Shown: positions 27,360 to 47,807 of the stretch, one piece after another
Layout of the letters: each line of letters starts with the position of its first letter
Position numbering within the stretch: position 1 is the first letter of the stretch
Origin: Maritimibacter sp.
GTDB taxonomy: Bacteria > Pseudomonadota > Alphaproteobacteria > Rhodobacterales > Rhodobacteraceae
DNA: 64,000 nucleotides
Direction: 5' to 3'
Assembly: GCA_050633625.1 (NCBI GenBank)
Contig: JBOEGW010000002.1
Span: 565-64,564, forward strand
The notes under the pieces: generated by a model
What the model was told of the DNA's origin: nothing
Database searches by the model: none
The model's input: only the letters and a program-made list of their open reading frames with translations
Made by a program: the position numbers and the translations under genes

Positions 27360-28787
27360 ATGCCGAAGAACATTCTAATTTTCTCGGATGGGACCGGACA
27401 AGTCGGTGGCATGAAGCCAGACCAACGGCTCTCAAATGTCTATAAGTTGTATCGTGCGGCCAGGCCCGGTCCATCCTCCCCGATCAAGCCATCTGAACAG
27501 GTTTGCTTCTATGACGCAGGCCTCGGGGCGGGAGAAGTTGGCGGGTTGACGTTTCAGCGAGTGCGCAACGTGCTTTCTGCGGCAGTAGGCACAGGAATCG
27601 ATGAAAACGTTATCGATTGCTACGAAAAAATAATTTCCTACTACGAACCAGGTGATCGCATCCTTGTGTTTGGTTTTTCACGTGGTGCATACACCGCACG
27701 CGCCGTAGCTAACGTGATGAACCTCTGTGGCATCCCAACCAAAATGCCGGATGGATCTGCTGTCCCACGCTATGGAGCGCCGCTCAGGAAGATCGCAAGC
27801 GACGCAGTCAATTTCGTCTACAATCACGGGAACGGATACTCGCGCGGTCAGGAACCCTATTTTACCCGAAGGGAAGAGCTCGGAAGGCGGTTTCGGCGAA
27901 AGTACGGGAGTTTCGTCCCTGATGCGGAGGAAGATGTTCAGGGCAACGTGCAGCCTACATTCATTGGCGTCTTTGATACGGTTGCAGCGCTTGGAAATGT
28001 CGTTGTCGGATATCTTATAGTCGCGAGTTTGGTGGCACTAGGCGGTCTGTTCTCTGCGGCGTTGTACTGGTCTTGGCATTGGATATTTTGGTCCGTCCCT
28101 GCGGTGTTACTGACCATCATTTCATATTGGTACATCAAGTTGCGCTGGTCGCAGTTCAAGTACTTTTCTCCCGATCCCGAAAAGCCATTGAGAATCTCGA
28201 ATCCGCGCGACTGGTGGGCGATTTGGAAGCACGGTCACCGAGCAGTCTGGAATCGCAAGAACTATGACAAATGGCTAGATTCCGATGTTGGGTTTGCCCG
28301 TCATGCATTGGCCATAGACGAGCATCGGCGAGACTTCCCCCGGGTTAAGTGGGCGATGAAAGCCGAGGCGGCCAAAACATCAGGCAGAAAGCCCGAATGG
28401 TTGAAACAAGTATGGTTTGCCGGGTGCCACAGCGATGTGGGCGGCAGTTATCTGGAACCAGAATCTCGACTCAGTGACATTGCGTTGGACTGGATGGTCA
28501 GCGAGTTGAAGGAATGCGTTCCTGAGATAAAGATAAACAAGAACATTCTTTTCCGATCTCCGGATGCTGTCGCTCTTCAACACGAAGAAACATACATGTT
28601 CAGGTTCGGCCCACTAAAGAGGAAGTGGCCGGCCAAACCACGTATCGTCGATCCAATTTTTAAGCTGCACCCATCGGTAATTCAGCGGCTTAAGGCTGAC
28701 TCTGTGCCTCAAGTTGGTGAGGTGAAGCCCTACCGGCCTGAACAGCTTAGGGAACACCCGCAAGCTAAGAAGTATTTCGAGGACTGA
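27360..28787 (+). CDS. DUF2235 (Tle1-like) alpha/beta hydrolase with two internal TM helices
   Basis: ILIFSDGTGQ start, nucleophile elbow VFGFSRGAYTARA, GVFDTVAALG and GCHSDVGGSY motifs. Hydrophobic insert YLIVASLVALGGLFSAALYW / IFWSVPAVLLTIISYWYI (aa about 214-259). Confidence 0.85.
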   Translation: MPKNILIFSDGTGQVGGMKPDQRLSNVYKLYRAARPGPSSPIKPSEQVCFYDAGLGAGEVGGLTFQRVRNVLSAAVGTGIDENVIDCYEKIISYYEPGDRILVFGFSRGAYTARAVANVMNLCGIPTKMPDGSAVPRYGAPLRKIASDAVNFVYNHGNGYSRGQEPYFTRREELGRRFRRKYGSFVPDAEEDVQGNVQPTFIGVFDTVAALGNVVVGYLIVASLVALGGLFSAALYWSWHWIFWSVPAVLLTIISYWYIKLRWSQFKYFSPDPEKPLRISNPRDWWAIWKHGHRAVWNRKNYDKWLDSDVGFARHALAIDEHRRDFPRVKWAMKAEAAKTSGRKPEWLKQVWFAGCHSDVGGSYLEPESRLSDIALDWMVSELKECVPEIKINKNILFRSPDAVALQHEETYMFRFGPLKRKWPAKPRIVDPIFKLHPSVIQRLKADSVPQVGEVKPYRPEQLREHPQAKKYFED

Positions 28788-28891: not shown

Positions 28892-30505
28892 ATGAAAATG
28901 AAGAGCCTAAAAAAATACAAGGTGGGCGGCACAGGATCCAAAATGCAGCTAGCTATTCCGCTGCCTCAAACACCGGACGGACGCGTTTACCGCTATTCTC
29001 CGAATGAAATCGCGCATCCCCGACACTTCGTTCTTGGCAATAGGGAAGCCGGTTTTGTCGTCGAAGAGCACAAGCGTGAGCGGATGAGGCAGGAACCAGG
29101 GACGACAAAGACTGTATGTCCTTACAGTGGTGTCATCGGCGATGACGGGGACTTCACACATCCGAAGGACCAGGAGGCCGCGATCAAGATCGTCAAACAT
29201 GCGGCAATGCAAGACGTCGAATCTGCATTGTCGGATATGCTCAAAGGCGTCGCTCAGAAAAGTCGTGGTGGGATCACTTTCAAGCCAGGTGCACGTACAC
29301 GTCGCCCAAACCCGCAATTTGGTCGACGTGATCTCATGCGCCTTCTGATTTGTGACTGCTGCGGGCGAGATTATGGCGTCTTCGCGATTGCGCTCTACTG
29401 TCCGGACTGCGGTGCCCCAAATATCGCACTTCACTTCGGGCGAGAGGTTGAGCTCGTCTTGCAGCAAGCCCGGATAGCAGAGGATTTGGGTGAAGATCGA
29501 CAAGAACTTGCGTACCGTCTCTTGGGTAACGCGCATGAAGATGTCCTGACCGCCTTTGAAGCGGTACAAAAGGTAGTCTACGTTCACAGGGTTTCTAAGG
29601 AGGAATCAGGTGTTGTGCCTGCCAAACCTGTGCGCAACGATTTTCAGAATGTCGAAAGGGCTCAAAAACGCTATGCTGAATTTGGCTTCAATCCGTTCTG
29701 CGCGCTGTCCGAGGACGAACGAGAGCTGCTCGATCTCAATATTCAGAAGCGGCATGTGATCGGACACAATCTCGGTGTGGTTGATGCCAAGTTCGCAGAA
29801 AACGCGCGAGACGCGCGCCTAGGTGAAACCGTGGAGCTAGTTGGGTCTGAAATTCGGGAGTTCGCCAGATTGTGCCAACTAGTGATTTCGGCGCTGAATG
29901 ATTGGCTTGGGGGCTTAAGCTTTCCGATTGCCCCAAAGGCTGAGGGGGAAACGGGCGGCGGGAACGAACCCGAGACTAAGGAAGGCACAGTGGGGGATCT
30001 TGGTAGTCTGGCATCCAGGATTGGCCGTTGGCTCTGTGAACATTCGGTTACTGGTATGCCCGACAATATCGACGAGGAGGGCGTTCTGACGGCATTTTCG
30101 GATATGGAAGAAGGCGAGCTGAAGGAGGCGTTAGCTGAGCTTGAAATGGAGAGCTGTGTCGTGCTGTCGCATGTAATCGGAACGCGCCTCCCACGCATCC
30201 AAACGGCAGAGGAACTCTTTCTGGTTTTTGACCCCCTTGTCTTGAAGTCGAGCCCGATCACAGACGCTTTGCATCTCGTCGATCTCGTTTTGGCGGGAGA
30301 TGGCTCAGTGAGCTTATCCGACTTACATGATCAAAGCGGAATGGACCAAAGGCGGTTCAACCCGGCGGCAGGGATGATCGTGGCAGAGATTGGCGAAGGT
30401 CGTGTGAGCCGCACATACTCGCCTGACTATCCGGCGAGGTATTTCACGATGGCCTCAGAGGACCGTGTCGCATTGAAGCGGCTTGGCAAACAGTTGACAG
30501 GGTAG
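28892..30505 (+). CDS. Hypothetical 537-aa protein with a central zinc-ribbon
   Basis: Long ORF. CDCCGRDYGVFAIALYCPDCG (CxxC-x13-CxxC). Isolated KRHVIGHN (R-x4-H) segment. Otherwise unassignable. Confidence 0.7.
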   Translation: MKMKSLKKYKVGGTGSKMQLAIPLPQTPDGRVYRYSPNEIAHPRHFVLGNREAGFVVEEHKRERMRQEPGTTKTVCPYSGVIGDDGDFTHPKDQEAAIKIVKHAAMQDVESALSDMLKGVAQKSRGGITFKPGARTRRPNPQFGRRDLMRLLICDCCGRDYGVFAIALYCPDCGAPNIALHFGREVELVLQQARIAEDLGEDRQELAYRLLGNAHEDVLTAFEAVQKVVYVHRVSKEESGVVPAKPVRNDFQNVERAQKRYAEFGFNPFCALSEDERELLDLNIQKRHVIGHNLGVVDAKFAENARDARLGETVELVGSEIREFARLCQLVISALNDWLGGLSFPIAPKAEGETGGGNEPETKEGTVGDLGSLASRIGRWLCEHSVTGMPDNIDEEGVLTAFSDMEEGELKEALAELEMESCVVLSHVIGTRLPRIQTAEELFLVFDPLVLKSSPITDALHLVDLVLAGDGSVSLSDLHDQSGMDQRRFNPAAGMIVAEIGEGRVSRTYSPDYPARYFTMASEDRVALKRLGKQLTG

Positions 30506-30557: not shown

Positions 30558-31568
30558 CTATGACCACACCGCTAATGGTGAGAATGAGATAGCCCTTCCT
30601 TCTTCCAAATCTTCCATAAACGTCTTCCACCGCTCCCGCCCCATTCTGACAGAGCAGTACCCTGCAGCCATAGCCGAAAAGCCAGTTAGGACTGTTGTCA
30701 GGTCATCGATGAATCCGTCTGCGAGTTTTGGAACTGCCTTGCCATACGCGAGGTAGATTGCATCACGATAGTTTGCTTTTCCCCGATATCTGGAGGCCTC
30801 ATGCAAGAAGCATATGCTCTTTCTACCAAAGGCATCGTCCCGCAACGCGCGTGCGGCTTTAGTGCGAAAATTGTCTACTCCCAATTCCTTGAATTCACGC
30901 GAATTTCTAACTTGTTGCTCAAGGTTCCATTGCTCCCAAGATGCAGTGCCCGACAAGTACTCTGCGTGACAGCCCCACGCCTGTTCTGGGGTTCTGGGTA
31001 CAGATGTGAGTGAGTGACTGCCACGGGATCGAGGCCCGGTTAGATCGCCCTCCACATCAGATTTGACGAGGCTGCCTAGCCGGTCGCTGAAGGGCGCCAT
31101 TGCCAACTTTGCTTCGACGATTTGTCGGTCCCACTGGCGGGCCGTTGAAGCGTGGGTCTCTGGAAACGAGCCGTCGGCTGCGGCGATCATTGCAGAGGCT
31201 GCGCCGTAGACACCATAGTACCATGTCACAATCCCAACACGTGCAACGTCGGCCTTGTTCGGCACTGCGGCCATTCCGCGAAGAGCAGCGATCTGATGCA
31301 GCGAGAAAAGCAATTGTTCGAATACCGAATTCAATTGGCGCTCGCTCAACTCCTTACGTTGAACCCGTCCATAGAATGCTTGGGCCGTACTGAAATCCAA
31401 AGCGCAATCTGAGACCAGTATGGCTTCCGCCCGCATCCAGTTTAGTGTGGATGGGAGTGCAAAAACCGCGTCTGGAATCTCCTCCGGTGTCTCGGTCAGT
31501 GTCCCGTGGGTGCGCATGCGGGTGTATAGTGATGTCATTGGCATTTCCTTCCGAGTAACTTTTTTCAT
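30558..31568 (-). CDS. Hypothetical 336-aa protein
   Basis: Long ORF convergent with the 537-aa gene (52-nt gap). Helical composition. The EASRYRGKANYRD segment is vaguely reminiscent of YaaC/HEPN-like proteins but is not assignable by eye. Confidence 0.7.
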   Translation of the reverse strand: MKKVTRKEMPMTSLYTRMRTHGTLTETPEEIPDAVFALPSTLNWMRAEAILVSDCALDFSTAQAFYGRVQRKELSERQLNSVFEQLLFSLHQIAALRGMAAVPNKADVARVGIVTWYYGVYGAASAMIAAADGSFPETHASTARQWDRQIVEAKLAMAPFSDRLGSLVKSDVEGDLTGPRSRGSHSLTSVPRTPEQAWGCHAEYLSGTASWEQWNLEQQVRNSREFKELGVDNFRTKAARALRDDAFGRKSICFLHEASRYRGKANYRDAIYLAYGKAVPKLADGFIDDLTTVLTGFSAMAAGYCSVRMGRERWKTFMEDLEEGRAISFSPLAVWS

Positions 31569-31832: not shown

Positions 31833-33206
31833 GTGATTTCGGATGAATGGCGCATCATGACACCGCGCCATGAACCCCAGGCTTCACTACGTGGTCATCT
31901 GACATTCGCCCTAAAATATGAAGGGCTCGATCTCGCTATCCTCAAACGTTTGTTTGAAGCTGTTGGCGATGAGCCAATCATCGCATGGGTCAGTGATGAA
32001 CCCAATGGTAGTTATGCGCGGAGGATTTGGTTCCTCTATGAATGGCTCTTCCAAACGCAGATCCGGCTGGAAGACGCAACTGGCGGACGCTACGTCCAAG
32101 TGCTGGACGACCGTCTTCAATATGGATCGACCGAGTCAAACTCTTCACGGCATCGGATAAAAAACAATCTGCCCGGGACACCAGACTTCTGTCCTCTGGT
32201 GTTTCGTACGCCGGAGCTTGAAGCTTTCTGCGCGATGGACCTTGCGCGTAGAGCCCAACAGATCGTCGACGAAGTGCCCCGCGATCTTTTAGCGCGTACA
32301 GCCGCATTTTTGCTACTGAAGGACTCTCGATCCAGTTACGCCATTGAAGGCGAACGCCCCCCCCAAGATCGTATTCAACGTTGGGGCCGCGCCATTGGCG
32401 AGGCAGGCCGACAGGCCCTTGATCAAGACGAACTGCTCCGCCTCCAACAGATTGTCATTGGGGATGACCGTTTCATAAAATTGGGCTTTCGACAGGAAGG
32501 CGGCTTTGTTGGATCGCATGATCGCGAAAGCCAGATGCCTCTCCCGGATCACATAAGCGCTAGGCATGAAGATTTGGACGACTTGATTGCCGGCATGGTC
32601 GCGTTTGACCGCACGAGTGGGCAGACCCTCGATCCAGTGATTGCCTCTGCTGTGCTCGCGTTTGGCTTTGTCTACATTCATCCGTTTGAGGACGGGAACG
32701 GGCGTCTGCACCGATATATCTTCCACCATGTTTTGGCCGAGCGCGGGTTCAATCCGCCAGGTGTCGTATTCCCGATCTCATCAGCAATCCTTGAACGGAT
32801 AGATGACTATCGTGCTGTTCTCGAAAGTTATTCAGCACGGCTACTGCCGTTCATCGAATGGAACCCAACTGAAAAATTCAATGTCGAAGTCACAAATGAG
32901 ACAGGCGATTTTTACCGCTTCTTTGATGCCACACCACACGCTGCGTTTCTCTACAGCTGCGTCCAAAAAACGATCGAAGTTGACCTCCCCTATGAAACAG
33001 AATTCCTCCGTCGCTACGACCAGTTCCGCGCAGCGATAGACGACATGTTCGACATGCCCACGCGCACCGTCGATCTTTTGTTCCGTTTTTTGCAGCAGAA
33101 TAATGGCCAGCTCTCTGCGAGAGCACGTGGCAAGGAATTTGCAGCCCTTACTGATCACGAAGTCGAACGGGTCGAGAACATTTATCGCAATTTCAATGCT
33201 TCCTGA
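31833..33206 (+). CDS. Fic/DOC-family protein (AMPylase-type motif); true start probably upstream
   Basis: Canonical Fic motif HPFEDGNGRLHRY. The frame is open and protein-like back to 31605 with no canonical start codon (see findings). Confidence 0.9.
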   Translation: MISDEWRIMTPRHEPQASLRGHLTFALKYEGLDLAILKRLFEAVGDEPIIAWVSDEPNGSYARRIWFLYEWLFQTQIRLEDATGGRYVQVLDDRLQYGSTESNSSRHRIKNNLPGTPDFCPLVFRTPELEAFCAMDLARRAQQIVDEVPRDLLARTAAFLLLKDSRSSYAIEGERPPQDRIQRWGRAIGEAGRQALDQDELLRLQQIVIGDDRFIKLGFRQEGGFVGSHDRESQMPLPDHISARHEDLDDLIAGMVAFDRTSGQTLDPVIASAVLAFGFVYIHPFEDGNGRLHRYIFHHVLAERGFNPPGVVFPISSAILERIDDYRAVLESYSARLLPFIEWNPTEKFNVEVTNETGDFYRFFDATPHAAFLYSCVQKTIEVDLPYETEFLRRYDQFRAAIDDMFDMPTRTVDLLFRFLQQNNGQLSARARGKEFAALTDHEVERVENIYRNFNAS

Positions 33207-33214
33207 GGTCACTT

Positions 33215-35263
33215 ATGTATTTGTCAAAACTAACCATCAGCGGATTCCGACAATTTGGACAAGGCGACGCAGCTGCTGAATTGACCTTCCAGCCAGGGGT
33301 GACAGCGCTGATTGGCAAGAACGATAGTGGCAAAACAGCGATCATTGATGCTATTCGCTATGCATTGCTGAGCCGTGATCAAATGTATTTCAAGGTGCAA
33401 CCGGAAGACTTTCACGTCGATGCGGCCGGCAGCAGTGTCGACGATATCAGGATCACGTGCGTTTTATCGGATCTCGGAACCGGTGATCAGGCAACCTTTG
33501 CGGAACATCTTACTTACTTGGACGGGAAGGTTTCGCTATTGGTGAATCTTCATGCCAGACGTCTTGCCACAGAGGGGTCTGCACGCAGATGGGTAGAAGT
33601 CAATGTCCGGTCGGGGTTGGATGGTGTGGGCCCTGCACTTGAGATGACTGTTCGCGAATTGCTTGCCTCAGCATATCTCAAACCGTTGCGGGACGCCGAG
33701 CGTGAACTCTCGTCTGGTCGCGGATCCAGACTGTCACAAATCCTCTACCACGTGGATGGAATCAAAGAGGGTGCTTCGTTTGATCCCGAAAACCCACCTG
33801 CGACACCGGCGGCAACAACTGGGTTAAGCCTGCTCGGTCTTTCAGAATACTTTGGACACAACGTGAAATCTCACAAGGGTGTTGTGGATGCGCAAAGCGC
33901 TATCAACTCCAATTACCTGAAGTCGTTACTTCTGGCTGGTGACAAAATGACCGGCAAGATCGATTTAACAGAAGGTGGAAACAAAGATGCTCGGCTTCGC
34001 CAAATTCTTGAGCGGTTAGAACTTGGCCTCATGGATGCCAGCGGCACTCAACCCCGAGGCAGGTTTGGCCTTGGGTCCAACAATATTCTCTACATGGCTT
34101 GCGAATTGCTGCTTCTTGGACGCGAACCAGAAGGGTTGCCACTGTTATTGGTCGAAGAGCCAGAGGCACATCTCCACCCTCAACGGCAACTTCGGCTTAT
34201 GCAGTTTCTCAAGACCGCTGCTGAGGGAAGGGTGCAGGATGAAGAAGGTCGTAAAGTCCAGGTCATCTTATCAACGCACAGCCCGAATTTGGCCTCGGGA
34301 CTTCCTGTAGCAAACACCGTTCTCTTGGACGGAGAGAATGCGCACCCTCTGTCGCACGACCACACTTGCCTTTCCTCAAATGACTATTCGTTTTTGGAAC
34401 GATTTCTCGACGCGACGAAAGCAAACCTCTTCTTTGCGCATGGGGTTTTGATTGTGGAGGGTGATGGTGAAGCCTTGGTCCTGCCCGCCATAGCGCGAGC
34501 GATTGGTCTCGATCTTAGTACGCATGGCGTTTCAATCGTCAATGTAAAGGGCACGGGGCTTCGCCGTTTCAGCAAGGTTTTTCAAAAGTCCGATGAAGCC
34601 AAGACCTGGATATCAATTCCTGTGGCTTGCATCGCAGACATGGATGTCATGCCAGACGCTGCGCCCGAGATACTTGGCCTCGTCACCGGCGATGATGATC
34701 CAAAGTGGACTAATCCGAAGCGGCGGTGGAAAGCGAACAAGCACTTTGGGCCAGATGCTTCCGCCATTGAAGCAGGTTTGAAAGAACGTTCTGAAGGTCT
34801 CTGCAAGGAAGACGCACAAAACGTACGAACGTTCGTCAGCAGTCACTGGACCTTGGAATATGATCTTGCCCGCAATGGAATCGCCTCAATGGTATTCAAT
34901 GCTGCAATGCTCGCCAAAGCTCACGACAAAATTTGCGATGGGACCGCGACACAAGATGATATTCTTGCAGAAGCGGGGGAGGCTTTCGAAAAATTGTTCG
35001 CCGATTGTGGCAAAGACGATGAACTCACGGCAATCCATATCTACCAACTCTTCACTTCGAAAAAGGCATCCAAGGCGATCGCGGCACAATACTTGGCTGC
35101 CGCTATCGACATTGAGGCGGCAAGTGAAGGATTTGACTCTGCAGCATTTGAGGCATGCCTTCCGACTTATCTTGTAGATGCGATCAAACACGCCTGTGAC
35201 AAAGGATCGGCGCCAGTCCTTGCTGATGAAGCTCAGCCAGGTGTCGTTGCGGCTGAGCAATGA
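33215..35263 (+). CDS. gajA: OLD-family ATP-dependent endonuclease (ABC-ATPase + TOPRIM), GajA-like
   Basis: Walker A GKNDSGKT, LLLVEEPEAHLHPQRQ, TOPRIM Glu in VLIVEGDGEALVLP, and DxD in ACIADMDVMPD. Paired with a UvrD-like helicase. Confidence 0.85.
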   Translation: MYLSKLTISGFRQFGQGDAAAELTFQPGVTALIGKNDSGKTAIIDAIRYALLSRDQMYFKVQPEDFHVDAAGSSVDDIRITCVLSDLGTGDQATFAEHLTYLDGKVSLLVNLHARRLATEGSARRWVEVNVRSGLDGVGPALEMTVRELLASAYLKPLRDAERELSSGRGSRLSQILYHVDGIKEGASFDPENPPATPAATTGLSLLGLSEYFGHNVKSHKGVVDAQSAINSNYLKSLLLAGDKMTGKIDLTEGGNKDARLRQILERLELGLMDASGTQPRGRFGLGSNNILYMACELLLLGREPEGLPLLLVEEPEAHLHPQRQLRLMQFLKTAAEGRVQDEEGRKVQVILSTHSPNLASGLPVANTVLLDGENAHPLSHDHTCLSSNDYSFLERFLDATKANLFFAHGVLIVEGDGEALVLPAIARAIGLDLSTHGVSIVNVKGTGLRRFSKVFQKSDEAKTWISIPVACIADMDVMPDAAPEILGLVTGDDDPKWTNPKRRWKANKHFGPDASAIEAGLKERSEGLCKEDAQNVRTFVSSHWTLEYDLARNGIASMVFNAAMLAKAHDKICDGTATQDDILAEAGEAFEKLFADCGKDDELTAIHIYQLFTSKKASKAIAAQYLAAAIDIEAASEGFDSAAFEACLPTYLVDAIKHACDKGSAPVLADEAQPGVVAAEQ

Positions 35264-37275
35264 CAGATCATCCGACCATACCGGAAGTGACCGACGAGGA
35301 CATTGCCTGGATTGCCGACACGATGGGTTTGGACGACCTGGATGGGGACCGGCGAGCCTTCCTCAAAAGAACTGGTACGTTCGATGTGTCGGCTTGCCCA
35401 GGTAGCGGAAAAACCACGCTGGTTGTGGCGAAACTCGCAATTTTAGCAAGGAAATGGCGTCACCCCACGTCAGGCATATGCGTACTTTCACACACGAATG
35501 TCGCCCGTGAAGAGATTCAGAACCGATTGGGTCACACACCAGTGGGGCACCGCCTGCTTCACTATCCGCATTTCATCGACACGATACATGCCTTTGCCAA
35601 TCGCTTTCTGGCTTTGCCGTATCTGCGCTCGAACGGCTTCCCATCACCGCTCGTTGATGATGACGTTGCAAAAGCGTTCCGCTGGAATGTGTTGCAAGGT
35701 CAAGAGCGCTGGAACTTCGAAAACTGGTTGAATAACAGACACACCAGCATAGATGACATCACCTTCCTCGATAGCGACTTATCGGTGGCGTTGACTTCAA
35801 GAGATTTTCCCGCTGGACCTCATACTGCAACTTATCAAAGGGCAAAGCGGATTATCGTAGAGTCGGCAACCGCGGGTCACTTCCGATATGAAGAAATGTT
35901 TGTTTGGGCGGAGTGCCTTCTGGAGCAGTTTCCGGAAATTTCGGTAAGCTTATCTCGCCGGTTTCCACTGGTTCTGATGGACGAGATGCAGGACACGTCG
36001 CAACGGCAGGCAGCACTTCTTGCGTCGATTTTCGACCGCACAAACGGACCCTGTTTTGTACAAAGAGTGGGAGACCCAAATCAGGAGATATTCAAGAGCG
36101 GGCAGGAGCAGAACATTGCCGATCCATTTCCTGATGTTTGCGAAGGTCGCACTATGTCGATCGGAAGTAGCCGGCGGTTTGGTGCCCCTGTCGCCGACCT
36201 CGCAAATCCACTTGCCATCGTTCCGATAGACGACGGCGGACTGCAGGGAAGTGGTCCGCAGCGCGCAGCCGCATTCTCTGATCACAATCGCAACCTCATC
36301 ATTGTCTTCCCCGATAACAATACAGATGGTGTTCTAGACGCGTTTGGAACGCACCTCCTCGAAACTTTCGACGATGAAACAATTGCGATCGGAGATTGCG
36401 TTGCGGTTGGCGGGGTTCATCGGCCGGCACCAGAGGCGATCGCCGCAGGGCATGCAAAGTTTCCAAGGTCTGTGGAACACTATTGGGGCGGGTATAGCCC
36501 CGAGGTATTAAAGTCAGACCGGCATCCCAAAACACTTGTCGGTTACGTTCATCATGCTCAGATCATGATGCGAATGTCCGGAGATACCGCCGGGGGGATC
36601 GCGCATTTTGCGACAGGCCTTAAGCGACTCGCTCGACAAATCGGTAAGCCAGAAAGCACGCTGGAGCGAACGCGTAAGCACATGGCCATTCGAGGCGTGC
36701 TTGCACCTATCCCTGACGCACTGGCGCGATATGATCAGTTCGTCAATACTTTCCTCATTGCGATGACGCCGGTGACTGAGGAAGTATGGCCGGGTTACGC
36801 GCAGCAATTTCGCGAGCTAGCTGGACAACTATGCCAAGGCGATATCAACCTTGACGCTGGTGCTGGTTTTTTGGCTTGGGAGGACCCGCAAGCCGACCTG
36901 CCTGAACCAGGAGTTGCGCAGGCGCATACCGACAACGTCGTCAATGTGAGTTTGGGTGACCGGGAAGTGTCTATCCGCCTTGGTTCGATTCATCAGGCTA
37001 AGGGGCAGACACACTTTGCGACGCTGCTATTGAGCACTTTCCAAAACCACCATTCATCGGAGAAGATCGTTCGCTGGCTCACGGGAGAAAAATTAGCCGG
37101 AATCGGCGAAGGTGTTCAGAACGTCTCGCGACTAAAACAATCCTATGTTGCGATCACACGACCAACGCATCTCGTGGCGATAGCTTTGCGCGATTCAGCA
37201 ATAGCGGCAAATAGAGCTCAGGCATTGGAGCAGCTTCAAGCGCGGGGATGGGAGATCAGGGACCTTTGCACCTGA
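35260..37275 (+). CDS. gajB: UvrD/Rep-family helicase, GajB-like
   Basis: Walker A CPGSGKTT and Walker B LVLMDEMQDTS. ATGA overlap with the OLD-nuclease gene. Confidence 0.85.
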   Translation: MTDHPTIPEVTDEDIAWIADTMGLDDLDGDRRAFLKRTGTFDVSACPGSGKTTLVVAKLAILARKWRHPTSGICVLSHTNVAREEIQNRLGHTPVGHRLLHYPHFIDTIHAFANRFLALPYLRSNGFPSPLVDDDVAKAFRWNVLQGQERWNFENWLNNRHTSIDDITFLDSDLSVALTSRDFPAGPHTATYQRAKRIIVESATAGHFRYEEMFVWAECLLEQFPEISVSLSRRFPLVLMDEMQDTSQRQAALLASIFDRTNGPCFVQRVGDPNQEIFKSGQEQNIADPFPDVCEGRTMSIGSSRRFGAPVADLANPLAIVPIDDGGLQGSGPQRAAAFSDHNRNLIIVFPDNNTDGVLDAFGTHLLETFDDETIAIGDCVAVGGVHRPAPEAIAAGHAKFPRSVEHYWGGYSPEVLKSDRHPKTLVGYVHHAQIMMRMSGDTAGGIAHFATGLKRLARQIGKPESTLERTRKHMAIRGVLAPIPDALARYDQFVNTFLIAMTPVTEEVWPGYAQQFRELAGQLCQGDINLDAGAGFLAWEDPQADLPEPGVAQAHTDNVVNVSLGDREVSIRLGSIHQAKGQTHFATLLLSTFQNHHSSEKIVRWLTGEKLAGIGEGVQNVSRLKQSYVAITRPTHLVAIALRDSAIAANRAQALEQLQARGWEIRDLCT

Positions 37276-37356: not shown

Positions 37357-37836
37357 CTAGTGTGTTTTGAGCCAGATCATTCCGTCAAATGCTCCAAGCT
37401 TTGCCTTATCCTTGGTCTCGTAGAGACGGCGGGCCTGGATTGCGATTCCGGTGGCCGGATCGGTGATGGTTCCACTCCACCCACCGGGGTTTGAGAAAAC
37501 AACGATGTGGAAGCCATCCGTCTTTAGGTAGTCGTTTCCATTTGTCGACACTTTCCATTTCCGAGTCAGCCACCGTGCGCGTCGTTGGGCTAAGTTTTTG
37601 CTGTCAGATTCTCTCTTTGAAGCAGCTGCGTAGTCTTCTTCCAACTTACCGGCACAGACGCAGCCACAGTCTAGAATGTCCTGATAGTTTGGATGCTGCA
37701 TTTGGTGAACATAGCGAATCTCTTGGTTTTCGCACATCTCACATTCTGTGGCTGGCTCGCCGAGGTCCTCAAGCCCGATACAGATCCAGCCCTTCTTTGG
37801 AACACCTTGCTTTGACCATTTGCCTAATGACGACAT
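37357..37836 (-). CDS. Cys-rich hypothetical protein (159 aa)
   Basis: ATG preceded by AGGAAG. CEMCENQEIRYVHQMQHPNYQDILDCGCVCAG suggests metal binding. Third gene of the WYL-WGR operon. Confidence 0.65.
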   Translation of the reverse strand: MSSLGKWSKQGVPKKGWICIGLEDLGEPATECEMCENQEIRYVHQMQHPNYQDILDCGCVCAGKLEEDYAAASKRESDSKNLAQRRARWLTRKWKVSTNGNDYLKTDGFHIVVFSNPGGWSGTITDPATGIAIQARRLYETKDKAKLGAFDGMIWLKTH

Positions 37837-37845
37837 GCGTTCTTC

Positions 37846-38091
37846 CTAACCGTCAGAGGACGTCAGCCTGAGCAGATAGCCTCTTGCTAGTATTTGTTTG
37901 ACCAGACCGGATAGGGCGTATTCTGCTTCGGTTTTAGACGTGAACCAGTCATGCCGATGCCGCCCCCAAGTGCCGAAGCGACCCCACTGACGGTGAACAC
38001 CGATATGTCCGAAGAGGTCCTTGGTCAGTTCCACGGAATAGAAGCGGTTCATGTTGACTGATGGATCAACGCGTCGCATGTCAATTTGCAT
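37846..38091 (-). CDS. WGR-domain protein (81 aa)
   Basis: NRFYSVELTKDLFGHIGVHRQWGRFGTWGRHRHDWFTSKTEAEYALSGLVKQILARGY is the WGR pattern (W-G-R triad with flanking FY...L). Overlaps the WYL gene end by 11 nt. Confidence 0.8.
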   Translation of the reverse strand: MQIDMRRVDPSVNMNRFYSVELTKDLFGHIGVHRQWGRFGTWGRHRHDWFTSKTEAEYALSGLVKQILARGYLLRLTSSDG

Positions 38092-38899
38092 TGATTTCCT
38101 CTCCGCTCATCGGGACATAGTCTATGGAGACGCGTTGGAGCCGAGGCTCTTTTTGCTCAAGGCCCCATCGGCGTTTAGTGTAGAACTCGAGCGCCTTTCG
38201 GGTTCTGGCTTCAAGCACGTCTCCGTTGAACCCAAATTCAATGCGCACCACACGTTGTTGTGCTTCAGTAAGTCTGGAATGCGGTTTAAGCTTCAGAATA
38301 GCCCAGGTGAACCAATCATCATCTCGGGGCACCGCATCGGCTGGCTTGGTTTTTGAGAAAGAATGATCAGGATCGATGCGAGCAGGATGGAAGTCACGGA
38401 AACCCTCTCGTTCAAAGCACCAGGCTCGCACGTGAAGTCTAACTCCATCAGACGCGAACCGAACAGGTGCAATCCAGCGTGTCATCGGCTCCGGGTCTCG
38501 CATCGATTGGTAAACGATCTGCGTTGCCTCATTTGCCCGGAATGCGCGGAACAGCGGACGTAGGACGCGCAGGTCCTGAGTCCGTTGCAAATCGGGCAAT
38601 CTATCGAATGCAGGTAGTGGTGCGCTGGAAAGAAGCTGCTCCAACTCGATCGAAGAGGCTTTACCGGTCAGCTGTTCAAAGCTCGCGTCCGCACGGTATC
38701 TGCGCGCCGACGCATCATAGTGCAGTGCGTCTTTTGGCGCTTCAGCGAGGTAAGTACGAAAATCGAGCGCGGCTTGCGCATTTGAAATTCCAAACCGTTT
38801 AATCAATGAGGCACGGGTCGCCGCGCCATCCCAGAAAAACAATCTGTCTAGGTATTCCAAGCGTGCGCGCTGAGCATGTTTGAGGTCTTCGAAGGTCAT
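38081..38899 (-). CDS. HTH-WYL domain transcriptional regulator (BrxR/CapW-like architecture)
   Basis: N-terminal winged-HTH-like ATRASLIKRFGISNAQAALDFRTY. Central WYL-type segment RWIAPVRFASDGVRLHVRAWCFEREGFRDFHPARI. 272 aa. Confidence 0.8.
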   Translation of the reverse strand: MTFEDLKHAQRARLEYLDRLFFWDGAATRASLIKRFGISNAQAALDFRTYLAEAPKDALHYDASARRYRADASFEQLTGKASSIELEQLLSSAPLPAFDRLPDLQRTQDLRVLRPLFRAFRANEATQIVYQSMRDPEPMTRWIAPVRFASDGVRLHVRAWCFEREGFRDFHPARIDPDHSFSKTKPADAVPRDDDWFTWAILKLKPHSRLTEAQQRVVRIEFGFNGDVLEARTRKALEFYTKRRWGLEQKEPRLQRVSIDYVPMSGEEINAN

Positions 38900-38970
38900 G
38901 GATGGAAGCTAGCTTGACTCCCATCAATTGTCCATATACTTTTTACACGTATATAATTTAATGGTGTAAT

Positions 38971-43100: not shown

Positions 43101-43184
43101 GTTCAGGAGGCCATACCCCAAGGCTTCTATGTGCGTTCGACCCCAAGCGGCAGCCGAGTCGAGGAAAGAAAGGGACTAGGATGA
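40104..43184 (+). CDS. sbcC: SbcC/Rad50-family ATPase
   Basis: Walker A GQTGAGKST, very long coiled coil with zinc hook CPVCGS, signature LSGGE, Walker B IFIDEGFGSLD. ATGA overlap with sbcD. Confidence 0.9.
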   Translation: MRPIRLSLQAFGPFATTEVVDFRSALETGLFGIYGQTGAGKSTLFSAMSFALFGAPTKTDQEPRSLRSDHSAPDLPTEVEFVFELGAKAYLIRRRPVQERPKARGEGTTEDAAEASLFEVTGIPVDTLGPSQPGRVIAEKKVSVVGQQVEALLGYGADQFRQIVLLPQGKFETFLAAKTDARVEILRDLFDVKIYRDLAARLKDEASEAERALREQRVLYVARLKERGFESADTLELGIAAAEANVEEKLGIQQGTEKANEAARKALTDGEQIEKAFVAVDTARQALDDLEAKTGEVDALAKRVDTVKNALQACDLETAWHNAERDDQVTMNAVTKAEGELNTATVTRKEAAQKLVEAQSGEERRQRVQADLTRLEAIENQVGQAAELQKAFDEAANDEASAKKALTEAVEESETLQSQRDATDLVLEQARKTEAARGKLTGELAEINRELINATAHAKAQGAVVDAKRKVEAASSELPTKTEAAQAADAALIEVEARLSRTQAIILAEKLAEGEPCPVCGSHDHPMPAHGAPEQSGLTEAFRNAQAQARTAAEARVRAESELGNWRTRLDETKRALDEHERPERTLVELESEIIRLKGTVAALGEAIDLDAMEERLADLKRKVTEAEAIEATVRTAAGQAGTNLAGARAKRDTVVGALPDGLRTPDAVVARREALQSEQRQLSEALDLATQADQAASEALARAQEQFEAAKRAREAQARRAEKAQGDFRARLEEVGLDKAEYVACKAHFPTLDADRQTVIDQREGLIAMRTTWQNAATACADHERADLAPLQSALDDATQALNAANAVLATARTDVTSLTRFKDSLAEALAETERLESESGPLRGLADLANGKNDFKMTLETFAIGAMFDQVLEAANMRLDPMTRGRYRLTRGLDASGGRGKRGLEIEVFDINTGKARPTATLSGGETFIAALALALGLADVVESQSGKIRMDTIFIDEGFGSLDTENGAGTLDQVIQVLAALTEGSRAVGLISHVGQVQEAIPQGFYVRSTPSGSRVEERKGLG

Positions 43185-43483
43185 CAAACCGATTGTATTA
43201 CCGCAAGGCGCACACCCGCCGACTGTCGACAGGCCGAACAGTCTCGGTCCGTGGCGGTTGGGCGCTCCGGGTCGGTCGCGGAAGTAGGAAGAGCGCATCC
43301 TTCAGGCGGACTTGTCCAATATGCGGTGCACTGATCGTAAGCGTTAGTATGCCCAAAGGTGGGTGGGTCCACTTCGAGGGAGGTAAAGGCCTGACACGCA
43401 TTAAACACCCGTGTCTGCATCTTGGCGAAGGTTTGAGCGGGCGACATGACGAGAACACTCCAGATCTTTTCGGTTTGCCCTGA
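43181..43483 (+). CDS. Small basic putative zinc-ribbon protein (100 aa), coupled to sbcC
   Basis: ATGA overlap with the sbcC stop. Arg/Lys-rich N-terminus, then CPICG...HPCLH. Competing antisense ORFs exist, so confidence is moderate. Confidence 0.4.
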   Translation: MTNRLYYRKAHTRRLSTGRTVSVRGGWALRVGRGSRKSASFRRTCPICGALIVSVSMPKGGWVHFEGGKGLTRIKHPCLHLGEGLSGRHDENTPDLFGLP

Positions 43484-43693: not shown

Positions 43694-44338
43694 TCAGACC
43701 CGCGGAACCTGAGCCTCCTCGTTTGGATCACCAACAGCCAAATCAAGCTCTGGCAAATCTCGCAGCGTCTGCAGATCAAACGTCGTCAGAAACACTTCCG
43801 TCGTGACAAACGTGTGCGGCGCACCCGGCCGCGGTGACCTCGGCCCGCTGGCAATCAGATCCTTGTAGCGCAATCGCGATAGCAAATCGCGGCTCACGTC
43901 CTTGCCAAAGATGTCCTTGAGCCCCGCGCGGTCAATGGGTTGATGATAGGCAATGGCACAGAGCACACCCATCTCCATCTCGGTAAAAGCGAGCGACTGC
44001 TCACCAAGATCCGCAGCCGCCTTGATCGCGTCCGCAAACTGCGTCTTCGTGCGGAACATCCACCCGCCAGAAACCTGCACCAGTTCGTAGGGCCGACCCG
44101 TCAACTCGGCTTGGATATCGTCAATCAGCATGTCGACCGAGGCCTCCTGCCCTAACACGCGCGCTAGGTCATCGCGACCGACGGGCGACGCACTGGCAAA
44201 GAGCACCGCTTCGATCCGCCCCATCCATTCGCGCCAGCGTAGATCTTGCGGCAAGTCTTCGAGCTCGCGGTCAAAGACACAATCGCGTCCCGAGCCCTCA
44301 TTTTCTTTCGCTGTTTTACCTTTGGCCGCGCCGGTCAT
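43694..44338 (-). CDS. scpB: ScpB-like (segregation/condensation protein B family)
   Basis: IEAVLFASASPVGRDDLARVL...ELVQVSGGWMFRT...GVLCAIAYHQPIDRAGLKDIFGKDVSRDLLSRLRYKDLI matches the tandem winged-helix ScpB pattern. Confidence 0.75.
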   Translation of the reverse strand: MTGAAKGKTAKENEGSGRDCVFDRELEDLPQDLRWREWMGRIEAVLFASASPVGRDDLARVLGQEASVDMLIDDIQAELTGRPYELVQVSGGWMFRTKTQFADAIKAAADLGEQSLAFTEMEMGVLCAIAYHQPIDRAGLKDIFGKDVSRDLLSRLRYKDLIASGPRSPRPGAPHTFVTTEVFLTTFDLQTLRDLPELDLAVGDPNEEAQVPRV

Positions 44339-45291
44339 GGCGCGATACCATACAGCCGAAACGTCGGTCGACCGGTCAGCTCACGCGCCACTCCCAATTC
44401 GACCAACCGATCACAAAGCCGCCGCGCCGCGCGATCTGTCATCGGAATAGTCGTCCCTTGGATCATCGGCGACAGCGCGGTCGAAGGTGCCACGGCATCC
44501 TCAGACAAAAACAGCGCAACGGCCGCATCGGATCCCTTGGCCCGCAGCTTCGGCGCGACTGCCTGAAGCGCGGCAGCGCGTTGAGCAAGGTCACATGAGC
44601 GGTGGACCGCATCTTCGATGGACTGCAGGATGCGCAGCTGAACCGCGAGTTCCGGCTCGTCCTCGTCCAGATCTCGTAGTATGGCCTTAGTAAGACAATG
44701 CGCCGAGACGGGCAAAACGACCGGCCAGTTCAAGACTCGCGCCAGCACCACATCAGAGAACAGACAAGCAACCCGCTCCGCCCGGTCGTCCACCTCCAGC
44801 ACCGAACGCATCACCGAAACGCACCCGACCAGCGGCCCATGGGTTTGACAGCGGGAAGCGGCCGATCGAAGCCAACCATCGACTTCCGTTTCAAGGTCCA
44901 ATCCAACAAATGCCTTGAGCGCCGCATTCCAATCGCGCCCAGTTATGCGCAGCCGCGCCGCGTCGCGCCAGAAGGCCAAGAGATCTCCATCCGGACCACG
45001 TGCCTCACCCGCTGGCGTCAGATGAAAAGCGTCGCGGATATCGACCTCTCGCGCCATCCGCCCCTCTAGCTTTGAGGTTGCCGACGCGGCAGTCAGCGCC
45101 AATCGGTTGGCAAGCAATTTCACTGGCACGCCTCCGGATGGATCGCTGACCAGCTGATCGAGGATCGTAAGGGCCACACCAGACCGAAATGCCACAGTTT
45201 CAAGGGTTTCTGCACGCCCTGAGGTGACCCAGGCAGGAAGCTTCGGTAGGCTGATCAAGTCGTTTGAGACAGTGGCAGGCTGAAAGGTCAT
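44335..45291 (-). CDS. DUF1403-like protein
   Basis: About 318 aa, overlaps the ScpB-like start by 4 nt. N-terminal LPAWVTSGRAETLETVAFRSGVALTILD recalls DUF1403 proteins of alphaproteobacterial plasmids. Assigned from memory and not verified. Confidence 0.5.
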   Translation of the reverse strand: MTFQPATVSNDLISLPKLPAWVTSGRAETLETVAFRSGVALTILDQLVSDPSGGVPVKLLANRLALTAASATSKLEGRMAREVDIRDAFHLTPAGEARGPDGDLLAFWRDAARLRITGRDWNAALKAFVGLDLETEVDGWLRSAASRCQTHGPLVGCVSVMRSVLEVDDRAERVACLFSDVVLARVLNWPVVLPVSAHCLTKAILRDLDEDEPELAVQLRILQSIEDAVHRSCDLAQRAAALQAVAPKLRAKGSDAAVALFLSEDAVAPSTALSPMIQGTTIPMTDRAARRLCDRLVELGVARELTGRPTFRLYGIAP

Positions 45292-45366
45292 GCTAGAACG
45301 ATACCTCAGCACGGCGCTTATATCCACAAAATATCACGTAAACCGCCCCACTCTGTCAGTCTTTTC

Positions 45367-45404: not shown

Positions 45405-46514
45405 ATGCTCAGCGCCATGTCGGAAAACAACGAGAAATCGCGCTCAAAGCCACCAAACGGGTCTTCGTTCAACGAGGACAACGAGAGAGATCGCCCGGAC
45501 GGCGAAGCCTTGAACCTCCCTTCCTTTGTGGCGGGTTCAGGCAGCCTCGACCGGCTGGTCGATACCGCCCGCGACTACGCACGCGCTGCGGCCTCGGACA
45601 ATACGCTGAAGGCCTACGCGAAAGACTGGGCGCATTTCGCGCGCTGGTGCCGGATTAAGGGCGCGGAGCCGCTGCCTCCTTCATCTGAAATGATCGGGCT
45701 CTACCTTGCGGACCTGGCGTCCGGAGCGGGCCCCTCGCCTGCCCTATCGGTCAGTACCATCGACCGCCGCCTGTCGGGCCTCGCCTGGAACTATGCGCAG
45801 CGCGGCTTTGCCCTCGATCGCAAGAACCGCCATATCGCCACCGTGCTGGCCGGGATCAAACGCAAACACGCCCGTCCGCCGGTGCAAAAGGAAGCGATCC
45901 TGGCCGAGGACATCCTCGCGATGGTCGCCACCTTGCCTTACGACCTGCGCGGTCTGCGAGATCGGGCCATCCTGCTCCTCGGCTATGCTGGGGGCCTCCG
46001 ACGCTCGGAAATTGTCAGCCTCGACGTGCACAAGGACGACACGCCGGACTCGGGCGGCTGGATCGAGATCTTCGACAAGGGAGCCCTGCTCACCCTCAAT
46101 GCCAAGACCGGCTGGCGTGAGGTCGAGATCGGACGCGGCTCCAAGGACCAGACCTGCCCTGTCCATGCGCTCGAGCAATGGTTGCACTTCGCCAAGATCG
46201 ACTTCGGCCCAATTTTCACCGGCACCTCGCGCGATGGCAAACGCGCCTCAGAAACCAGGTTGAACGACAAGCATGTCGCGCGCCTGATCAAGCGCACGGT
46301 TCTGGACGCCGGCATCCGGTCGGACCTGCCTGAGAAAGACCGCCTGGCGCTGTTCTCCGGCCATTCGTTGCGCGCCGGTCTCGCCAGCTCCGCCGAAGTC
46401 GACGAGCGCTACGTCCAGAAGCAGCTTGGCCACGCCTCGGCCGAGATGACCCGCCGCTATCAGCGCCGCCGCGACAGGTTCCGGGTAAACCTGACCAAAG
46501 CCGCCGGTCTCTGA
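45405..46514 (+). CDS. Tyrosine site-specific recombinase/integrase
   Basis: C-terminal catalytic region FSGHSLRAGLASS...QKQLGHASAEMTRRYQRR (R..HxxR..Y signature). Confidence 0.9.
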   Translation: MLSAMSENNEKSRSKPPNGSSFNEDNERDRPDGEALNLPSFVAGSGSLDRLVDTARDYARAAASDNTLKAYAKDWAHFARWCRIKGAEPLPPSSEMIGLYLADLASGAGPSPALSVSTIDRRLSGLAWNYAQRGFALDRKNRHIATVLAGIKRKHARPPVQKEAILAEDILAMVATLPYDLRGLRDRAILLLGYAGGLRRSEIVSLDVHKDDTPDSGGWIEIFDKGALLTLNAKTGWREVEIGRGSKDQTCPVHALEQWLHFAKIDFGPIFTGTSRDGKRASETRLNDKHVARLIKRTVLDAGIRSDLPEKDRLALFSGHSLRAGLASSAEVDERYVQKQLGHASAEMTRRYQRRRDRFRVNLTKAAGL

Positions 46515-46526
46515 GCCCCTGCCCTA

Positions 46527-47807
46527 TCACGCCGCCTGCCCACTGAGCCTACCATAGAAGCTGCGCTCGAGATGCAGCTCCCCTGCCCCGGCTTTCTCTA
46601 CCATGCCGCACAGATAGCCGCCCGGCGAGGCAACCTCGCCCGCACTGTGCTTCTCGAAGACGAGGGCAAACGCGGCCGTGGCCACCTGGGTGCCCATTCG
46701 GTCCTGCGCCACGTTCCAGGCATGCTCAGAGATACCGATCATCGGCCTGAGTTGTCCGGCAACCCGGTGCAGATCGCCCCAATCCTTCAGGAATCCACCC
46801 ATATTGCGCGCCCAGGATGCGAATTCCGGACAGGCTTGCATGATTGTCGGCAGGTCGAGCGCTGTCCGCTTCTTGCGCACCTCGGCAACCCAGTCTTCCA
46901 GCTCCCTGTCAACCCGCTCTTCCGGTGGCGCATTGGGCACCACACCCGCCGCTTCCTCTTTTTCAGAGGAATTACTAGTTACAGGATTAAGTTGATTTGT
47001 AATTAGTATATGAGGTTCGGAAATGACCCCCCTGGGGTTCATTTCTTGAGTCTTCTTCGTGACTTGGGTATCGTTATTATCGGTGTTTTCCACAGGTTTC
47101 ACCGCGCCAGTCGCTTTGAGATAGGCCGCCTCAACCCGTTCCTGGAGTTCCTTGAACCATGTGAGCAAACGCACCAGCTGTTCGGACGCTTCGTGTCGGC
47201 GTGGTAGCCGGTCGAGAAGCTCCTCAAAAAGCCCCGTGAATTGCCTCCAGGGCCCACGCAGCGCGCTGCTGAGAGCTGCCTCGATCCGGGCTCGGATCAT
47301 CCGGCGCGCCACAGTGATCTGGCGCTTCAGGCGCTGGCAGAGTTCGCGCTCGGCCTGCAACTCGGTATGAAGTCCCTCGAACTCCTCGACACGGGCGGAA
47401 AGCGGTGAAAGATCGAAGCCATAGGCCTCGACGATCCGCCCCTCAGCGTCCCTGCGGCCCCACCGCTTGCCATTGGGGCTATCCTGGAAGGAGATCACGC
47501 CGATCTCAGCAAGACGCCGCGCGTGGCGCTTGAGGGCCGACAGGGAAAAGCCCGTCTGCTCCATCAGATAGGCGTTCGACGCCCAGACGATCGGGCGCTG
47601 CCCCTCCTCCCAGTCCTGAGCTTGCGTGAAGGCCCCGAGCGTGTCGAGGAGCATCATGTCGCCTGCCTTCAGGCCGATATGTGCCCCCACGCGCTTGAGT
47701 GCCACGAAGGCCCGTGTTTTGGGTATTGCTACCCGTTCACCGGCTTGGGCAAGTTGCTCAGCAACCCCAAGACCCGGTGTCGGCTTGCGCCAACCTGTAT
47801 GTTTCAT
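46527..47807 (-). CDS. repC: Replication initiator RepC
   Basis: GKRWGRRDAEGRIVEAYGFDLSPL and overall N-terminal similarity to RepC. Third gene of the repA-repB-repC array. Confidence 0.9.
   Translation of the reverse strand: MKHTGWRKPTPGLGVAEQLAQAGERVAIPKTRAFVALKRVGAHIGLKAGDMMLLDTLGAFTQAQDWEEGQRPIVWASNAYLMEQTGFSLSALKRHARRLAEIGVISFQDSPNGKRWGRRDAEGRIVEAYGFDLSPLSARVEEFEGLHTELQAERELCQRLKRQITVARRMIRARIEAALSSALRGPWRQFTGLFEELLDRLPRRHEASEQLVRLLTWFKELQERVEAAYLKATGAVKPVENTDNNDTQVTKKTQEMNPRGVISEPHILITNQLNPVTSNSSEKEEAAGVVPNAPPEERVDRELEDWVAEVRKKRTALDLPTIMQACPEFASWARNMGGFLKDWGDLHRVAGQLRPMIGISEHAWNVAQDRMGTQVATAAFALVFEKHSAGEVASPGGYLCGMVEKAGAGELHLERSFYGRLSGQAA

Follow-up and report, generated by a model that had tools for sequence, protein, structure and literature searches.

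The 64,000-nucleotide stretch of Maritimibacter sp. DNA analysed here (the window) carries three closely packed genes on its minus strand, which encode a WYL-domain transcription regulator (the WYL protein), a free-standing WGR-domain protein (the WGR protein) and a 159-aa protein that belongs to no described family (p159). Across a 71-bp intergenic region these genes face a divergent operon encoding the nuclease SbcCD and a small protein, orf100. Our favoured reading, which we hold with moderate confidence, is that the trio is the regulatory and DNA-sensing arm of a plasmid SbcCD module, in which a repressor responsive to single-stranded DNA (ssDNA) co-controls SbcCD and two small helpers. 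The invariant core of this module is the WYL gene lying divergent from sbcD-sbcC, with orf100 following in the clade to which the window belongs. What was observed directly, as described below, is how the genes are arranged, the families they belong to, their synteny, the purifying selection on them and the conservation of the control region; coordinates are collected in Table 1.

The list of open reading frames (ORFs) and the minus-strand sequence bear out every coordinate and junction that a first-pass annotation of this DNA had given for three minus-strand genes packed together. The WGR gene begins with an ATG at 38091 and overlaps the end of the WYL gene, including its stop codon (38081–38083), by 11 nt; p159 begins 9 nt past the WGR stop and has its own ribosome-binding site, AGGAAG, which lies 5 nt upstream of the ATG and overlaps the WGR TAG. 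The gap of 71 bp to the divergent sbcDC-orf100 operon is likewise as annotated, and within that operon sbcD and sbcC, and also sbcC and orf100, overlap by 4 nt. Across this region the window is 100% identical to plasmid p4 of Sulfitobacter pontiacus BL28 (AP027376.1), where the WYL, WGR and p159 genes are all annotated ‘hypothetical protein’. We collected p159 homologues with their flanking DNA from 80 species-representative genomes as well as from metagenomes and plasmids, and searched the window proteins against all ORFs of these loci. The same gene order and spacing, sbcC-sbcD with WYL-WGR-p159 divergent from it, recurs in 28 loci, among them 20 species-level genomes (Rhodobacterales and Hyphomicrobiales) and 3 complete plasmids, and the trio is therefore more than a chance association. 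This answers the conservation check proposed in the first-pass annotation, as the trio does occur elsewhere in the same order. The arrangement covers all p159 homologues of at least 77% identity except one on a 5.9-kb contig of a metagenome-assembled genome (MAG; L016), and extends to a clade at ~65% identity. Spacing within the trio ranges from −18 to 11 nt across loci, the negative values being an artefact of longest-ORF start calls. Ratios of nonsynonymous to synonymous substitution (dN/dS) of 0.05–0.24 across all six genes, and of 0.05–0.19 across the trio (WGR 0.06–0.19, p159 0.05–0.07), indicate purifying selection. All three are genuine, conserved genes.

The proteins encoded by the divergent operon have the features of the SbcCD/Mre11-Rad50 family: a nuclease with an SbcD_C domain, a Walker B ATPase and a CxxC hook, encoded in one operon, with the zinc-hook motif CPVC (CPVCGS) read from the translation in the middle of SbcC. 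SbcCD cleaves hairpins and blocked DNA ends. In operon structure, subunit sizes, domains and zinc hook the pair resembles the chromosomal SbcCD of Escherichia coli, but unlike the latter it is plasmid-borne, paired with a WYL regulator, followed by a putative zinc-finger ORF and situated in a defence island. Nineteen loci of the first set, counting the window, have an orf100 homologue after sbcC, and so do 4 further plasmid loci; a second SbcCD clade (L001, L002, L012 and L031) has none. The protein has no Pfam or PADLOC match and its gene a dN/dS of 0.10–0.24; its alignment contains an invariant CPxCG...HFE...KHxCLHxG pattern, likely a zinc finger, and a C-terminal TPDLF. We note that this C-terminal sequence loosely resembles a sliding-clamp-binding peptide.

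The first-pass annotation had offered two alternatives for the trio, and of these we favour the second, that it is the regulatory arm of sbcDC-orf100, because WYL lies divergent from sbcDC everywhere inspected and does so in two SbcCD clades. Linkage of the trio to sbcCD, for which a check had been proposed, holds in all 28 loci, in each of which (28/28) WYL is divergent from sbcDC, and the same placement is seen in all seven plasmids inspected (Leisingera, Rhodovulum, Phaeobacter P83 and P24, two Paracoccus and Roseovarius indicus). In Phaeobacter inhibens P24, Paracoccus albus and R. indicus the regulators are WYL paralogues 37–45% identical that are still divergent from sbcD-sbcC-orf100, and in Paracoccus sp. 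SCSIO 75233 an IS6 element follows WYL, WGR and p159 are absent, and WYL-sbcDC is kept. The two SbcCD clades spanned by the pairing are deep ones, 35–47% identical. A Yoonia MAG (L012, 2562–8376) has a trio 81–87% identical to that of the window together with SbcD at 47% and SbcC at 35% identity, a mosaic which shows that the two arms have recombined at or near the promoter they share; the WYL-sbcDC pairing therefore survives shuffling of the module. Since the pairing persists without WGR and p159 and spans two deep SbcCD clades, we consider WYL and sbcDC to be functionally tied. A distant variant on a plasmid of Rhizobium leguminosarum Vaf10 (L099, 2951–6813) differs in gene order, with WYL and an orf100-like gene divergent and an SbcD-like gene after the latter; there is no clear SbcC in this locus, which may be decayed.

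The 71-bp region between the two arms is itself strongly conserved. We aligned 29 intergenic sequences (28 related loci and the window), and a second set added loci with WYL paralogues. Over the 28 related loci conservation is strong throughout, and the motifs CTTGACTC and GTCCATA are invariant in 33 of 34 intergenic sequences, including those beside divergent WYL paralogues; the exception (L024) has GTACATA instead of GTCCATA. A promoter scan identified a promoter-like TTGTCC-18-TATAAT at 38928–38957, which ends 13 nt before the sbcD ATG, and an inverted-repeat search identified an A/T-rich, partly palindromic block at 38929–38953 that overlaps it. This operator-like block is unique in the 64-kb window (0 copies expected by chance), with no second copy there, for example upstream of gajA. 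The layout, a regulator gene beside an operon from which it diverges across a shared bidirectional promoter, matches that of CapW in CapW-controlled CBASS systems (CapW-CBASS).

Several lines of sequence evidence place the WYL protein in the family of such regulators. It matches the Pfam WYL domain (E 5e-9) and, over residues 8–250 of 272, the PDB entries for CapW (7tb5, E 1.9e-31; 7tb6, E 2.9e-31), with the BrxR structure 7t8k matched at E 4.5e-27. Homologues at ~65% identity contain WHD_BrxR, WYL and BrxR_CTD domains, and the protein has the three-domain architecture of CapW/BrxR, namely a winged helix-turn-helix (HTH), a WYL domain and a C-terminal extension. Judged by sequence, then, the WYL protein is a CapW/BrxR-family repressor, and the earlier description of the first gene product as a BrxR/CapW-type HTH-WYL regulator is upheld by the PDB matches and by the domains of the homologues. 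Rl CapW contacts ssDNA through S144, R164, R168 and R184, which lie in and around an RWHVR motif (PMC11662680). The corresponding motif of the WYL protein is R154-L-H-V-R158, whose two arginines match R164 and R168, and S132 is the counterpart of S144, so that three of the four contact positions are located and conserved; candidate counterparts of R184 are R168 (in FRDF) and R174. In PADLOC the protein matches only a generic WYL accessory model (E 1e-12). In Haematobacter a relative at 32% identity is an ordinary BrxR at the head of a BREX system, from which we take the SbcCD-linked WYL regulators to be a distinct subset of the family.

The second gene product had been described as a free-standing 81-aa WGR domain, and the match to PF05406 confirms this (62.8 bits, cut-off 22; model positions 1–74 of 79), with W36-G37-R38 present. 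In PARP enzymes the WGR domain reads DNA breaks. The WGR protein shares the Pfam domain and the W-G-R motif with PARP1, PARP2 and PARP3 (weak PDB sequence matches to the PARP3 and PARP2 WGR domains, E 0.04–0.16) but, unlike them, stands alone in its chain, with neither a catalytic domain nor a zinc finger attached. Searches by tblastn found small WGR genes in 1,283 records of alphaproteobacterial plasmids, mostly conjugative, in varied contexts such as after traG and a thermonuclease gene (Ti plasmid) or beside a resolvase gene. On pLPU83a a small WGR gene has been found to be co-regulated with transfer genes, and other bacterial WGR proteins are reported to belong to DNA-damage regulons, MolR to that of LexA and DR2173 to that of DdrO. 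WGR and p159 together are accessories of one lineage, and selection on both is strongly purifying. We considered a toxin-antitoxin pair, but neither protein matches a toxin or antitoxin family and their co-occurrence is confined to the lineage; the idea was dropped because there is no toxin fold.

For p159 we found no match in Pfam, NCBIfam or PADLOC and only a marginal one in PHROG, and every source that names the protein calls it ‘hypothetical protein’. The family is nevertheless very large: a profile search covering 1.84 billion representatives returned at least 2,492 clusters (50% identity) at E≤1e-3, 504 of them at E≤1e-30. The first-pass annotation had noted a CxxC...CxCxC cluster in a protein of no recognised family, and most of this stands. 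No described family was found, and the pattern C32xxC35...C57xC59xC61 is present; in an alignment of 26 sequences C35 and H48 are invariant and conservation reaches 90% or more at C32, C59, C61 and H44, whereas C57, the first cysteine of the CxCxC part, is variable. The check that had been suggested for homologues and conserved cysteines is thus answered by a large family with four cysteines conserved at 90% or more. Structure prediction, which had also been proposed, gave an AF2 model with a pLDDT of 89.6 and two strand-strand-strand(-strand)-helix units. Searches with this model returned nothing at E≤0.001 in PDB or BFVD, and a search of PDB with the alignment profile returned nothing. The best sub-threshold fold matches (PUR-alpha, E 0.06; Sub1/PC4, probability ~0.5; an uncharacterised Bacillus phage JL protein) give a weak hint, from the model, of a strand-strand-strand-helix nucleic-acid-binding shape.

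Elsewhere the p159 family is joined time and again to nucleic-acid enzymes. There are N-terminal fusions to UvrD helicases, and fusions to RNase H and Toprim as well. In 20 loci it forms the extreme C-terminal domain of UvrD/PcrA-like helicases (~900–1050 aa where complete); these fusion loci (within L061–L091) are from Clostridia, Treponema and Bacteroidales, and ~300 residues without a Pfam match precede p159. In L069 the helicase and p159 are separate adjoining genes, and in L040 and L044 p159 comes third in an operon, after genes for an OLD-ATPase and a UvrD helicase. Aeromonas pAsa4 has p159 divergent from gajA-gajB, and other upstream partners include an AAA_13 ATPase, an ABC ATPase with nSTAND3, and an XRE-IrrE regulator. 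Relatives at or below 60% identity lack WGR and sbcDC, and a distant WYL-family gene is nearby only in L065 and L078. We did not use the neighbourhoods of the Clostridia helicase-p159 fusions as evidence, as they are not conserved. We note that L086 also has sbcD and sbcC as a pair, 1.4 kb upstream. N-terminal extensions seen among 182 p159-family proteins look like miscalled starts.

From the above we infer repression, an ssDNA signal, DNA binding by WGR and p159, induction and a biological role for the module along the following lines. A CapW/BrxR-type WYL dimer on the 71-bp bidirectional promoter would hold both operons low. Upon DNA damage, phage replication or entry of conjugative DNA, ssDNA would bind the WYL domain and free the repressor from the promoter. 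One arm would then yield the SbcCD hairpin and DNA-end nuclease together with its putative zinc-finger partner orf100, and the other would yield more repressor and two small helpers predicted to bind nucleic acid. By analogy with PARP enzymes, the WGR protein is predicted to dock on DNA breaks or 5′-phosphate ends. For p159 we predict a DNA-structure reader or a docking module for SF1 helicases, because the same domain occurs in UvrD/PcrA helicases, in RNase H and Toprim proteins and at the ends of OLD-UvrD operons. Together these proteins would steer end and hairpin processing by SbcCD to abnormal or foreign DNA.

Several observations weigh against this scheme. In CapW the ssDNA signal is transmitted by the tryptophan of RWHVR, and the WYL protein has leucine at this position. 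The conserved intergenic motifs could be promoter elements only, and SbcCD may be plain plasmid housekeeping repair. WGR and p159 are missing from several plasmids that keep WYL-sbcDC and are dispensable for the pairing; they co-occur in this lineage only, and a search with the WGR profile found no natural WGR-p159 fusion among the 182 p159-family proteins. DNA binding by p159 is a guess because no structural match is significant.

The locus can also be considered from the side of p159, where a second, variable set of genes begins. In the window the neighbour is a complete Gabija system, annotated as ‘hypothetical proteins’ in AP027376.1 and missed by the first-pass annotation, of which gajB is convergent with p159 and 82 bp away. 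The DNA past p159 varies from locus to locus and mostly encodes defence systems (Table 1), with the module as a constant anchor beside this defence-exchange site; both the swap site and the UvrD-linked p159 family had been overlooked. A P. inhibens P83 plasmid (L011, 6951–7133) retains a 60-aa p159 remnant at the insertion of a SIR2 and ATPase pair, and L027 keeps a 94-aa fragment of an OLD-family gene; the cuts made in cargo exchange therefore fall at or within the 3′ end of p159. Of 27 loci, 13 have OLD-family genes on the p159 side, against 0 of 17 with such genes on the sbcC side; the genes are of at least 4 types (three Gabija subtypes and P2-Old-like), although these counts overstate independence because the loci are related. 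Gabija itself adjoins p159 in 9 of 27 scored module loci (window included) and in Aeromonas pAsa4. Yet Gabija consists of two genes, for the OLD nuclease GajA and the UvrD-like helicase GajB, and p159 has no PADLOC match, lies outside the gajAB operon and is mostly found away from Gabija; it is not a member of the defined system. As a side observation, p159 is closely followed in L026 and L028 by the gene for a CapP-like metalloprotease (PADLOC capP E 1e-66) with a 109-aa partner, so that the WYL module has as its neighbour another kind of defence regulator that responds to DNA damage.

How far do other explanations account for these data? It is a tentative possibility that the module is housekeeping, with a backbone SbcCD clearing hairpins or blocked ends that arise in plasmid replication or transfer, WYL providing damage-inducible control, and WGR and p159 being minor accessories. 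SbcCD is a canonical repair nuclease, some plasmids place the module in their backbone between relaxase/coupling-protein genes and virB or rep genes, small WGR genes are very common on alphaproteobacterial plasmids (the 1,283 records described above), where they occur beside transfer genes and, on pLPU83a, are co-regulated with them, and other WYL regulators control DNA-damage responses. The WYL protein, however, matches CapW/BrxR (E 2e-31 to 5e-27) far better than PafC (E 0.09), CapW and BrxR homologues have been reported to form one clade apart from the DNA-damage regulators DriD, PafBC and DdaA, and defence genes flank the module in nearly every locus. It is unlikely, though compatible with our favoured reading, that p159 instead serves the neighbouring OLD/UvrD systems (Gabija in the window) as a third component, an adaptor or a safety factor of GajB-like helicases, its link to the WGR gene being no more than a physical one at the margin of the cargo site. 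The one-sided distribution of OLD genes, the L040 and L044 operons, the divergent arrangement on pAsa4 and the UvrD fusions all speak for such a role. Against it, the p159-WGR coupling stays tight beside BREX, AbiE, PDC-S06 and CapP where there is no OLD or UvrD gene, p159 is convergent with gajB in the window and is therefore not co-transcribed with it, an OLD or UvrD gene lies within 6 kb in only 6 of 43 stand-alone p159 loci, and the related loci are non-independent samples.

The remaining two explanations detach the trio or its regulator from sbcDC. WYL might be an island-level regulator of variable cargo, with adjacency to sbcDC incidental, as BrxR regulates BREX and BrxU: BrxR has been shown to repress a multi-system island that contains a second binding box, and here cargo always abuts the trio. 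The operator-like block, though, occurs once in the window and not upstream of gajA, the orientation of the cargo varies and is often convergent, and WYL-sbcDC persists beside unrelated cargo, so that we regard this as very unlikely. Still more improbable to us is the other alternative of the first-pass annotation, in which the trio would be a defence or stress module complete in itself and not dependent on sbcDC. The three genes are tightly coupled and co-conserved, and BrxR-like genes often head defence operons, but the three proteins contain no recognisable enzymatic or toxic domain that could act as effector, WGR and p159 are lost or replaced where WYL-sbcDC stays, and the trio was never found without sbcDC among the loci examined.

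We regard it as doubtful, though worth stating, that the six-gene block is a new plasmid immune or immune-safeguard system in which a CapW-like ssDNA sensor switches on SbcCD and two small readers of DNA lesions; p159 would then be an unrecognised helicase-docking or DNA-structure domain that is also the third gene of some Gabija-like OLD-UvrD systems. A 2026 preprint reports that hairpin DNA activating the P2 OLD nuclease is removed by SbcCD, and a further preprint that insertions in sbcD gave back conjugation in resistant strains. Both make a defence-related role plausible, and the former suggests, speculatively, why OLD systems often adjoin the module. In a concrete version that builds on the P2 OLD preprint, the module would protect plasmid and host from self-activation of the OLD-family systems that so often adjoin it, and would attack hairpin-rich invading DNA. 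The first-pass annotation had found the arrangement unfamiliar, and we concur: in PADLOC-DB v2 the combination fits no catalogued anti-phage system (WGR, p159 and orf100 have no matches, and SbcD and SbcC only weak partial ones to PDC-S10/S60 and LmuB), and literature on WYL with WGR, BrxR with SbcC, WYL with SbcCD and plasmid WGR, including a survey of BrxR co-localisation, yielded no description of the module. A ‘WGR’ match in a paper on pipolins proved to be the abbreviation wGRR.

Among known systems the closest is CapW-CBASS (E. coli upec-117, P. aeruginosa, S. maltophilia and R. leguminosarum), which shares the regulator family (E ~1e-31), the layout and three of the four ssDNA-contact positions, and differs at the RWHVR tryptophan. 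CapW-CBASS controls a CD-NTase and an effector, whereas the module contains SbcCD and orf100, and its regulator transcript, unlike that of CapW-CBASS, carries two extra small genes, WGR and p159. BrxR islands (Acinetobacter BrxR and pEFER BrxR) have a regulator of the same family, and the module is likewise plasmid-borne and in a defence island; BrxR, however, lies upstream of and co-directional with BREX, while the BREX found beside the module in Rhodovulum is cargo, convergent and distinct from the regulated operon. CapW/BrxR-type WYL repressors are already known as switches for CBASS, BREX and restriction systems, and the WYL-SbcCD pairing would add a classical repair nuclease to these inducible functions borne by mobile elements, at a time when recent work implicates SbcCD in blocking conjugation and in modulating the activation of OLD nuclease. 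What is new here is an SbcCD payload under a WYL repressor in a mobile module, and p159 as an uncharacterised and very widespread family, whose binding partner could explain how helicase-nuclease systems find their DNA substrates. The locus is also a well-defined defence swap site on plasmids of marine Rhodobacterales, useful for mining new systems.

Table 1 Features of the window, and cargo found next to p159 in the window and related loci (L numbers).
Feature	Position or loci	Strand	Basis or remark
PRiA4_ORF3-like	24201–24782		island cargo
TIR-domain protein	26144–27088	-	island cargo
Tle1-like/DUF2235 phospholipase-type protein	27360–28787		island cargo
Protein without Pfam match	28892–30505		island cargo
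Protein without Pfam match	30558–31538	-	island cargo
Fic protein, directly upstream of gajA	31857–33206		island cargo
Gabija, adjacent cargo outside the module	33215–37275 (gajA 33215–35263, gajB 35260–37275)	+	PADLOC GajA E 2e-189, GajB E 1e-157
p159, 159 aa, N-terminal four-Cys unit then four-strand-plus-helix unit	37357–37836	-	AF2 model, alignment
Free-standing WGR-domain protein, 81 aa	37846–38091	-	PF05406 E 3.4e-17
CapW/BrxR-family wHTH-WYL-WCX transcription regulator (by sequence), 272 aa	38081–38899	-	Pfam WYL, PDB matches
Divergent control region, 71 bp	38900–38970		intergenic alignment, promoter scan, inverted-repeat search
sbcD (Mre11-like nuclease subunit), 378 aa	38971–40107	+	Pfam Metallophos E 1e-12, SbcD_C E 5.7e-12; sbcD in AP027376.1
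sbcC (Rad50-like SMC-family ATPase), 1026 aa	40104–43184	+	Pfam AAA_23 E 6.7e-19, SbcC_Walker_B E 6.4e-10
orf100, small conserved protein, ATGA overlap with sbcC	43181–43483	+	homologues after sbcC; alignment
Tyrosine integrase	45405–46514
RepC	46527–47807
ParA/RepA-like gene	49067–50278
Cargo by p159: Gabija subtype A, convergent	window, L013, L014, L018, L021
Cargo by p159: Gabija subtype B, co-directional	L017, L020
Cargo by p159: Gabija subtype C, co-directional	L023, L032
Cargo by p159: P2-Old-like	L009, L015, L022
Cargo by p159: BREX-1	L010, L019
Cargo by p159: PDC-S06, first large gene beyond p159	L025, L034		L025 scanned; L034 by matching 696-aa size
Cargo by p159: CapP	L026, L028		L026 scanned; L028 by matching 304-aa size
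Cargo by p159: AbiE	L001
Cargo by p159: SIR2 + ATPase	L011		p159 truncated

Elsewhere in the window, an ScpB-like gene (PF04079, E 4e-32) that overlaps a DUF1403 gene (E 2e-91) lies on the minus strand just past orf100 (43694–45327). Past ~45.4 kb the ORFs of the window depart from the coordinates of AP027376.1, and the window may come from a related but rearranged plasmid. Further along, the minus strand at 56956–61353 encodes a protein of 1465 aa. Its helicase domains are of the Strawberry-notch type (AAA_34, E 4e-119; Helicase_C_4, E 1e-96), and it also matches a methyltransferase weakly.

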